Shown here one piece after another: positions 3,051-3,241 of a DNA stretch of 37,009 bases. Source of the stretch: Escherichia phage PGX1; sequence record OQ703770.1. One strand, 5' to 3'. The position numbers and the translations under genes were made by a program. Each line of letters begins with the position of its first letter. The stretch's first letter is position 1. The notes below the pieces were generated by a model. It did no database searches, was not told where the DNA came from, and was given only the letters and a program-made list of their open reading frames with translations.

Positions 3051-3115
3051 TAGTCTTATCTTACAGGTCATCTGCGGGTGGCCTGAATAGATACGATTTA
3101 CTAACTGGAAGAGGC
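3051..3115 (+). promoter_or_regulatory. R1: RNase III site R1 and gene 1 ribosome-binding region
   Basis: tagtcttatcttacaggtcatctgcgggtggcctgaatag...ctaactggaagaggcactaa, as upstream of T7 gene 1. Confidence 0.55.
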
Positions 3116-3120
3116 ACTAA

Positions 3121-3210
3121 ATGAACACTATTAACAACGCGAAGGCACTTCCGGCTAAAGGTAACTTGAACCTACAGGACATCCTTAAGTCAGACTTCGC
3201 GTTCGCGTAA
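3121..3210 (+). pseudogene. 1: Gene 1 (T7-type RNA polymerase) remnant: 29-codon in-frame fusion of the first ~8 and last ~21 codons
   Basis: ORF MNTINNAKALPAKGNLNLQDILKSDFAFA*: the T7 RNAP N-terminus (MNTINIAK...) joined to its C-terminus (...ALPAKGNLNLRDILESDFAFA). About 2.56 kb of coding sequence is absent, and no RNAP-sized ORF exists elsewhere in the window. Confidence 0.9.
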
Positions 3211-3218
3211 CGTCAAAT

Positions 3219-3241
3219 TAATACGACTCACTATAGAGGGG
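3219..3241 (+). promoter_or_regulatory. phi1.1A: Phage RNAP promoter phi1.1A
   Basis: taatacgactcactatagaggga. Confidence 0.9.

Follow-up and report, generated by a model that had tools for sequence, protein, structure and literature searches.

The gene 1 locus of Escherichia phage PGX1 raises the question of whether a T7-type phage has really lost its RNA polymerase gene and, if so, where its polymerase comes from. The window analysed here is the whole deposited sequence (OQ703770.1, 37,009 nucleotides). At the T7 gene 1 locus the list of open reading frames shows a frame of 29 codons, MNTINNAKALPAKGNLNLQDILKSDFAFA, which occupies 90 nt on the plus strand (3121-3210).

Comparison with T7 (V01146) by BLASTN showed that PGX1 1972-3144 corresponds to T7 2022-3194, and PGX1 3145-4744 to T7 5757-7361. 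T7 3195-5756 has no counterpart in PGX1, a loss of 2,562 nt or 854 of the 883 codons of gene 1. The remnant consists of gene 1 codons 1-8 (MNTINNAK, 3121-3144, plus strand), joined in frame to codons 863-883 and the stop codon (ALPAKGNLNLQDILKSDFAFA followed by the stop, 3145-3210, plus strand), which align from T7 5757. The AAG/GCA join lies exactly on a codon boundary, between codon 8 and codon 863, and the reading frame is kept. An identical breakpoint, 3144/3145, was obtained against at least 12 relatives, comprising T7, JacobBurckhardt, two Logan contigs and at least eight IMG/VR contigs. Comparison with five full-length relatives revealed no microhomology at the join, and we found no repeat pair around the deletion site, no scar, site or marker at the junction and no k-mer common to its two sides; there are no Ns in the PGX1 sequence. 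The initial annotation had described the N-terminus of the RNA polymerase fused in frame to its C-terminus in a 90-nt open reading frame, with about 2.56 kb or some 855 codons missing. The fusion and the length of the missing stretch are borne out by the ORF list and the BLASTN comparison, and the codon count is corrected to 854; the alignment of the stub to T7 gene 1 that it had called for yielded the breakpoint and the absence of microhomology given above. The deletion amounts to 6.5% of the genome, and the stub is predicted to be translatable yet functionless. It is possible that the junction arose by a two-step microhomology path through an internal AAG-GCA-CT site (gene 1 nt ~894).

Directly 5′ of the leader and stub lies an intact gene 0.7 (protein kinase/host shut-off; 1971-3050, plus strand), which matched T7 gp0.7 over residues 1-359 of 359 at 90% identity in TBLASTN, and whose protein is an exact match to WGL32402.1 of PGX1. 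The gene 1 leader (3051-3120, plus strand) differs from T7 3101-3170 at one position, and phages N30 and C5 match 3045-3120 at 100% identity. It contains an RNase III R1-type hairpin with its core stem at 3064-3085, for which RNA folding gave -23.3 kcal/mol (z = -2.77), and the ribosome binding site AAGAGG at 3106-3111. On the other side of the stub, promoters phi1.1A (3219-3241) and phi1.1B (3295-3317), both on the plus strand, align to T7 5848 and 5923; together with the AT-rich stretch extending to about 3390 they form what we take to be the primary replication origin region of T7. Preservation of the upstream ribosome binding site, the downstream phi1.1A promoter and the origin region had been proposed from the outset, and both BLASTN and the promoter scan agree. 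Genes 1.1, 1.2 and 1.3 (ligase) follow 3′ of the stub and are intact (3396-4880, plus strand, full-length TBLASTN matches).

No second polymerase was found in PGX1. A T7 RNA polymerase query matched the stub alone (TBLASTN, whole 37,009 nt), and every one of the 14 open reading frames of at least 300 amino acids was assigned to a T7 protein other than the polymerase, confirming that no polymerase gene is present elsewhere in the 37 kb. The deposited genome does not encode a single-subunit RNA polymerase of its own, the feature to which the Autographiviridae owe their name. It starts about 20 nt past the expected end of the left terminal repeat and stops about 70 nt short of the right repeat; both repeats (~160 nt each) are absent from the deposited sequence, whose ends are 1-30 and 36980-37009, leaving the genome unfinished at either end. 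Gaps of this size leave no room for a 2.6-kb gene, which disposes of the counter-case raised with the initial annotation, a polymerase hidden in the unassembled ends.

The junction was then compared with other viral sequences. We examined 80 IMG/VR loci with a gp0.7 relative, two of which were uninformative, being cut by contig ends. All 78 informative contigs contained a full-length polymerase gene 73-348 nt downstream of the kinase gene, and none of the 505 matching phage records joined the two gene 1 flanks directly. The stub is therefore not a chance feature. An exact 42-mer spanning the junction was absent from IMG/VR, and a degenerate K8/A863 junction pattern was absent from the JGI metagenomes and from 100,044 GTDB species genomes.

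By gene order and nucleotide identity PGX1 is a member of Teseptimavirus, the T7 genus: 49 of the 53 T7 proteins queried were recovered in T7 order, and 89-91% of positions 1-25000 aligns to JacobBurckhardt, ESh2, C5 and others at 90-92% identity. Full-length counterparts of T7 gp2.5, 3, 4, 5, 6, 8-16, 18 and 19 were found by TBLASTN, a complete ORF of 554 aa encodes the tail fibre gp17 and matches over residues 1-485, and unassigned regions reach about 0.6 kb at most. All essential T7 genes besides gene 1 are intact. They are accompanied by gene 2 (5989-6183, plus strand), whose product inhibits E. coli RNA polymerase, shows 100% identity to T7 gp2 in TBLASTN and ties the phage to a phage-type polymerase. 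The window contains 16 T7-type promoters with the core CGACTCAC, all on the plus strand, where none is expected by chance; six are perfect 23-mers. They are the counterparts of 16 of the 17 T7 promoters, phiOL and phiOR among them. Because all 16 match the T7 consensus, six of them perfectly, T7 RNA polymerase itself would be expected to serve them. These promoters, together with intact gp2 and gp0.7 and the lack of a polymerase gene, imply that a T7-type RNA polymerase would be required in trans, and the analysis here upholds the initial annotation in this respect.

Gene 1 is essential in T7. Autonomy by another route, with the host RNA polymerase transcribing the entire PGX1 genome and no single-subunit polymerase involved, would be in keeping with the plaques reported on a wild host. 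However, gp2 and gp0.7 are both intact, the former unchanged from T7, the 16 promoters are conserved, and downstream of the ligase gene the TE terminator region has kept 96% identity with T7. In addition, T7 delta-1 needs BL21(DE3) for growth (PMC11011186). We find polymerase independence scarcely credible.

A second lesion affects gene 3.5, which encodes the lysozyme (amidase) and inhibitor of T7 RNA polymerase. The first 86 codons only are native (7830-8086, plus strand), and the alignment ends at T7 10962 and JacobBurckhardt 14534. T7 gp3.5 is 151 aa long, and the Pfam Amidase_2 match in PGX1 is limited to profile positions 4-83 of 131. The native codons are followed by filler copied from the phage's own gene 16 (8087-8161, plus strand), 75 nt that equal 28940-29014, with identity from 8085 giving a 2-nt overlap. 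The source, native in gene 16, is 28938-29014 on the plus strand (gp16 residues ~527-552). The copied segment is accordingly 75-77 nt long, 100% identical to the phage's own gene 16, with 0-2 nt of microhomology; its reading frame is that of gene 16 and continues the frame of 3.5, and the right junction creates a stop codon. It replaces 212 nt of the relatives, which comprise the 3′ half of gene 3.5 and most of promoter phi3.8. The remnant of this promoter, from -2 onward, lies at 8162-8190 (plus strand), and its GGGAGA has become GGCAGA. None of 1,071 matching phage records contains the gene 3.5 lesion. Gene 16 of PGX1 has diverged from that of T7 by ~15%, yet the filler still equals it in every letter, and the event must therefore have happened recently and within the PGX1 lineage. 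Templated filler of this kind resembles what template switching leaves behind in real DNA, and assembly would hardly produce it. Restoring 2,562 + 137 nt to PGX1 gives about 39.7 kb plus the missing ends, the usual Teseptimavirus genome size, and this return to normal size argues for recent loss from a normal ancestor.

An HNH-type homing-endonuclease-like ORF (7400-7858, Pfam HNH_3) lies between genes 3 and 3.5 and adjoins the lesion. It sits at a mosaic boundary marked by an abrupt change in similarity to T7. Other HNH-type homing-endonuclease-like ORFs are found after gene 5 (13022-13444) and at the gene 7.7 position (16603-16992).

The damaged genes are functional partners, the polymerase and its inhibitor, and the gene 3.5 lesion is the key to interpreting the gene 1 loss. 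Gene 3.5 is non-essential in T7, and Zhang and Studier reportedly found in 2004 that T7 without lysozyme is harmed by too much polymerase activity, a condition under which a lower gene-1 dosage would be favoured. The gp3.5 protein binds T7 RNA polymerase and alters gene expression; T7 without 3.5 is viable with late lysis, and in lysozyme-deficient T7 gp16 can partly compensate (PMC2680503). In T7 delta-3.5 (Zhang & Studier; Heineman, Bull & Molineux), as in PGX1, the amidase and RNA polymerase inhibitor has been lost. PGX1 differs from it in that the deletion looks spontaneous, the patch comes from the middle of gene 16 and not from the transglycosylase domain, and phi3.8 has gone too.

On balance we lean towards the view that PGX1 is a real deletion genome, defective, and complemented by a T7-type RNA polymerase supplied in trans. 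The sequenced molecules would then be real and the polymerase would originate from a source other than the genome itself, with the deletion derivative making up most of the sequenced DNA. Its early operon (0.3-0.7, stub, 1.1-1.3) would still be transcribed by E. coli RNA polymerase. The phage's own gp0.7 and gp2 would shut down the host enzyme, and nothing encoded would read the 16 T7-type promoters; class II/III expression, origin firing and packaging would all need T7-type RNA polymerase from trans. As to the source, we suggest tentatively that polymerase came from RNAP-proficient siblings in the same high-titre stock, which would amount to cheater or defective-interfering behaviour. A laboratory host of the DE3 type expressing T7 RNA polymerase, in which the deletion was either spontaneous or designed, seems to us rather unlikely, and supply by unrelated helper phages very unlikely indeed. 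Loss of lysozyme would suit a sibling or a laboratory-host setting, in that the inhibitor of a scarce polymerase would be gone, and the lesions in gene 1 and gene 3.5 may be linked by selection. A fuller version, in which polymerase-less and lysozyme-less genomes dominate the stock, are carried by a minority of intact siblings and owe both losses to joint selection, we regard as doubtful.

The gene 1 junction itself speaks for molecules that existed. With no Ns and no common k-mer at the junction, an assembler would need junction-spanning reads to produce it. Nevertheless, an artefact of assembly or curation is the main rival and has to be taken seriously, although it is not the reading that we favour. 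The infectious phage would have a normal gene 1, and perhaps a normal 3.5, and reads would have been lost and the flanks joined. One route is removal of host or contaminant reads against a reference containing T7 gene 1, as in DE3 lysogens, and T7 lysozyme, as on pLysS or lysY plasmids, the flanks being joined by gap closing, chimeric reads or hand editing. Common expression strains and plasmids carry two T7 genes, and these are precisely the ones damaged in PGX1. Between gene 1 of close relatives and the DE3 copy identity is 94%, so that reads would map to DE3, and the DE3-homologous DNA (T7 3145-5841) left in PGX1 comprises 50 + 85 nt, each less than one read. When JacobBurckhardt was used as the proxy genome for the gene 3.5 similarity profile against T7, identity rose from ~70-85% in the retained 5′ half of 3.5 to 92-100% over the segment missing from PGX1. 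The terminal repeats are likewise absent from the contig, and substitutions beside both junctions could be contig-end errors.

Several observations are difficult to accommodate in this way. A repeat or common k-mer at the breakpoints, or Ns, would mark a collapsed assembly, and none was found in PGX1; without them, a de Bruijn assembler cannot join flanks that lack junction-spanning reads, and paired reads cannot bridge 2.56 kb. The exact 75-77-nt gene-16 filler with its two junctions is unlike the product of a gap. [quoted passage not shown] We also reason that, at ordinary mapper thresholds, true reads would still cover the three odd substitution sites in the stub. Finally, the 3.5 breakpoint coincides with the natural mosaic boundary by the homing-endonuclease gene at 7400-7858, which explains the step in similarity without any filtering. 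Read filtering thus accounts for the choice of genes hit and for the left edge of the 3.5 deletion, but fails on the gene-16 filler, the 2.56-kb join and the exact lengths of the retained tips.

The sequences bordering the junctions carry private substitutions. Codons 1-8 of the stub contain three that are absent from relatives, at 3129, 3137 (I6N) and 3141. Over 3045-3144 the best of 257 phage records is 97% identical, all three mismatches falling in the last 16 nt before the junction, and the PGX1 letters at these positions were never present in 14 sampled gene-1 starts. To the right of the junction, 66 nt (3145-3210) are 100% the same as a Logan contig (L003). At the other lesion, the change in the otherwise invariant GGGAGA is at 8169, 8 nt right of the patch. 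Apart from these changes, the DNA on the flanks agrees with that of relatives. The odd N-terminus of the stub was not found in intact polymerases in IMG/VR or in the 257 phage records. The idea that the 16 nt left of the junction had been borrowed from another part of gene 1 or of the genome was rejected, as no such source was found. The substitutions beside the junctions could reflect error-prone repair at real breakpoints, contig-end errors or changes encoded by primers.

Primer-encoded changes would fit an engineered gene-1 knockout, in-frame and scarless by design and grown on a T7-RNAP host, with the 3.5 lesion arising later as a spontaneous, compensatory event. This is a subset of the laboratory-host branch of the real-deletion reading. 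A codon-exact, in-frame, microhomology-free join between codon 8 and codon 863 has a chance probability of 1/9 and is expected by design; the three substitutions, shared by none of 257 relatives, are confined to the 16 nt beside the junction, where primers might have introduced them; and the promoters fit the specificity of T7 RNA polymerase. Growth of T7 delta-1 on BL21(DE3) is standard practice, and a clean deletion in gene 1 beside a messy lesion in 3.5 is what a phage first designed and then adapted would show. However, the record and the title of the paper give PGX1 as a natural isolate used against ETEC, scar, site and marker are all absent from the junction, the I6N missense change has no design purpose, and the phage collection holds no engineered record with this junction. 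We consider engineering improbable.

PGX1 is reported as a sewage isolate and, by the title of its paper (Hu et al.), as lytic on wild multidrug-resistant ETEC, in vitro and in vivo. To lyse wild ETEC, a phage of this type needs a T7-type polymerase from some source. T7-type RNA polymerase genes were found in 28 of 5,426 complete E. coli genomes, all of them engineered (DE3, T7 Express and BL21-AI types), and a natural E. coli source of the enzyme was rejected on this ground, engineered strains alone carrying one. The combination of reported autonomous lysis of wild ETEC with wild E. coli devoid of T7-type polymerase counts in favour of an artefact. Because PGX1 is reported to lyse wild ETEC, the infectious PGX1 population almost certainly has gene 1.

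The T7 fragment of DE3 (BL21(DE3) 748921-754572) has 50 nt in common with one side of the stub and 85 nt with the other (3095-3229). Arms of this length would in principle allow a deletion phage growing in a DE3 strain to recover T7 gene 1 through recombination.

The reported growth on wild ETEC weighs against the real-deletion reading in its simplest form, as a clonal gene-1-less stock contradicts it. A mixed stock, for its part, must survive plaque purification, or the deletion must reach dominance within a few amplifications. T7 deletions usually arise between short direct repeats, and the gene 1 junction is without them. Of ten proteins encoded in the window, eight are exact matches to PGX1 entries in GenBank (WGL32402-WGL32443). 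The PGX1 proteins are known from a single NCBI contig, and the missing terminal repeats show that the assembly was not carefully finished.

The initial annotation had gone further and suggested a helper-dependent, satellite-like lifestyle. This did not hold up, given the reported lysis of wild ETEC, the full gene set and the unique junction. A naturally circulating T7-type lineage that has given up its polymerase and co-infects with intact T7-like helpers would be expected to keep its cis elements, and PGX1 has kept promoters and origin region, plus all structural genes; the three private substitutions in the stub can be read as drift after inactivation. But the junction is absent from IMG/VR, the JGI metagenomes and the 100,044 species genomes, and gene 1 is retained by every one of the 78 informative viral contigs and of the 505 matching phage records. 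Both lesions are recent, as the filler still equals gene 16 and a relative has the very 66 nt that lie to the right of the gene 1 junction, the other genes are intact and show no decay, and there is no integrase, own replicon or capsid-size redirection. Such a lineage is, in our estimation, highly improbable. Known phage satellites (P4, PICI, PLE, cf-PICI) are helper-dependent, as the PGX1 molecule would be. They lack structural genes and have integration and replication modules of their own, whereas PGX1 has the full T7 structural set (genes 8-17) and replication set and is short of the polymerase and lysozyme only. The features that define satellites, namely absence of virion genes and possession of their own integrase or replicon and helper-hijacking genes, were not found in PGX1.

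The closest known counterpart is T7 4107 (T7 delta-1), the 'tester' phage of Studier, which is propagated on BL21(DE3) (PMC11011186). Like PGX1, it has no gene 1, is otherwise complete and uses T7 RNA polymerase supplied by the host, and PGX1 resembles it in that gene 1 coding capacity is gone, the other essential genes are present and the T7-specific promoters are kept. T7 4107 is a laboratory construct in T7 itself, whereas PGX1 is 85-92% identical to T7 and is presented as a natural isolate. Unlike T7 4107, PGX1 has a 29-codon in-frame stub and a lysozyme lesion.

Defective genomes of other viruses provide a second comparison. The internal-deletion, helper-dependent pattern is known from f1 miniphage and from the defective interfering particles of RNA viruses. 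MS2 cheaters are reported to have lost, by internal deletion, a function that can be supplied in trans, to retain their cis elements and to need intact co-infecting genomes (PMC7442481). The gene 1 loss in PGX1 likewise removes an essential function for which complementation in trans is possible, as T7 delta-1 on DE3 hosts demonstrates. The cis elements phi1.1A/B and phiOL/phiOR are present, while the terminal repeats and the concatemer junction are outside the deposited sequence. PGX1 differs from defective interfering genomes in the small size of its deletion, 6.5% of the genome. We found no described example of a T7-like defective-interfering genome in the literature.

Elsewhere in the genome, the gene 0.4-0.6 region (1300-1814) has been replaced by ORFs at 1309-1593 (94 aa) and 1659-1817 (52 aa) that have no T7 homologue or Pfam match. 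At 99 aa, the gene 1.7 homologue (5527-5826) is roughly half as long as its T7 counterpart (196 aa). The RecBCD inhibitor gp5.9 (13966-14264) matches T7 over its first 24 residues only and continues into an unrelated segment, in which lies a 42-aa CxxC...CxxC ORF (14136-14264). The C-terminal part of the tail fibre and about 0.6 kb beyond it (32220-33640) have no nucleotide similarity to T7 or JacobBurckhardt, and this region is probably a host-range module matching the reported ETEC specificity.

Gene-1-deleted T7-type phages are already a known laboratory kind, of which PGX1 is at most another example and may be a database error; neither the deletion nor the artefact reading shows a new kind of biological system. 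If the gene 1 junction is an artefact, a public reference for a candidate therapeutic phage is without a central gene and both termini and needs correction, and filtering of reads against DE3-type E. coli references can strip genuine genes from T7-like phages. If the deletion is real, a plaque-purified therapy stock of a T7-like phage can be dominated by genomes unable to replicate alone, which bears on dosing (particles versus infectious units) and on quality control. A real deletion would also offer a tractable cheater system in a dsDNA phage, linking the dosage of a polymerase to its inhibitor, and, if the stock truly has two components, this would be the first defective-interfering or cheater system described in a T7-like phage.
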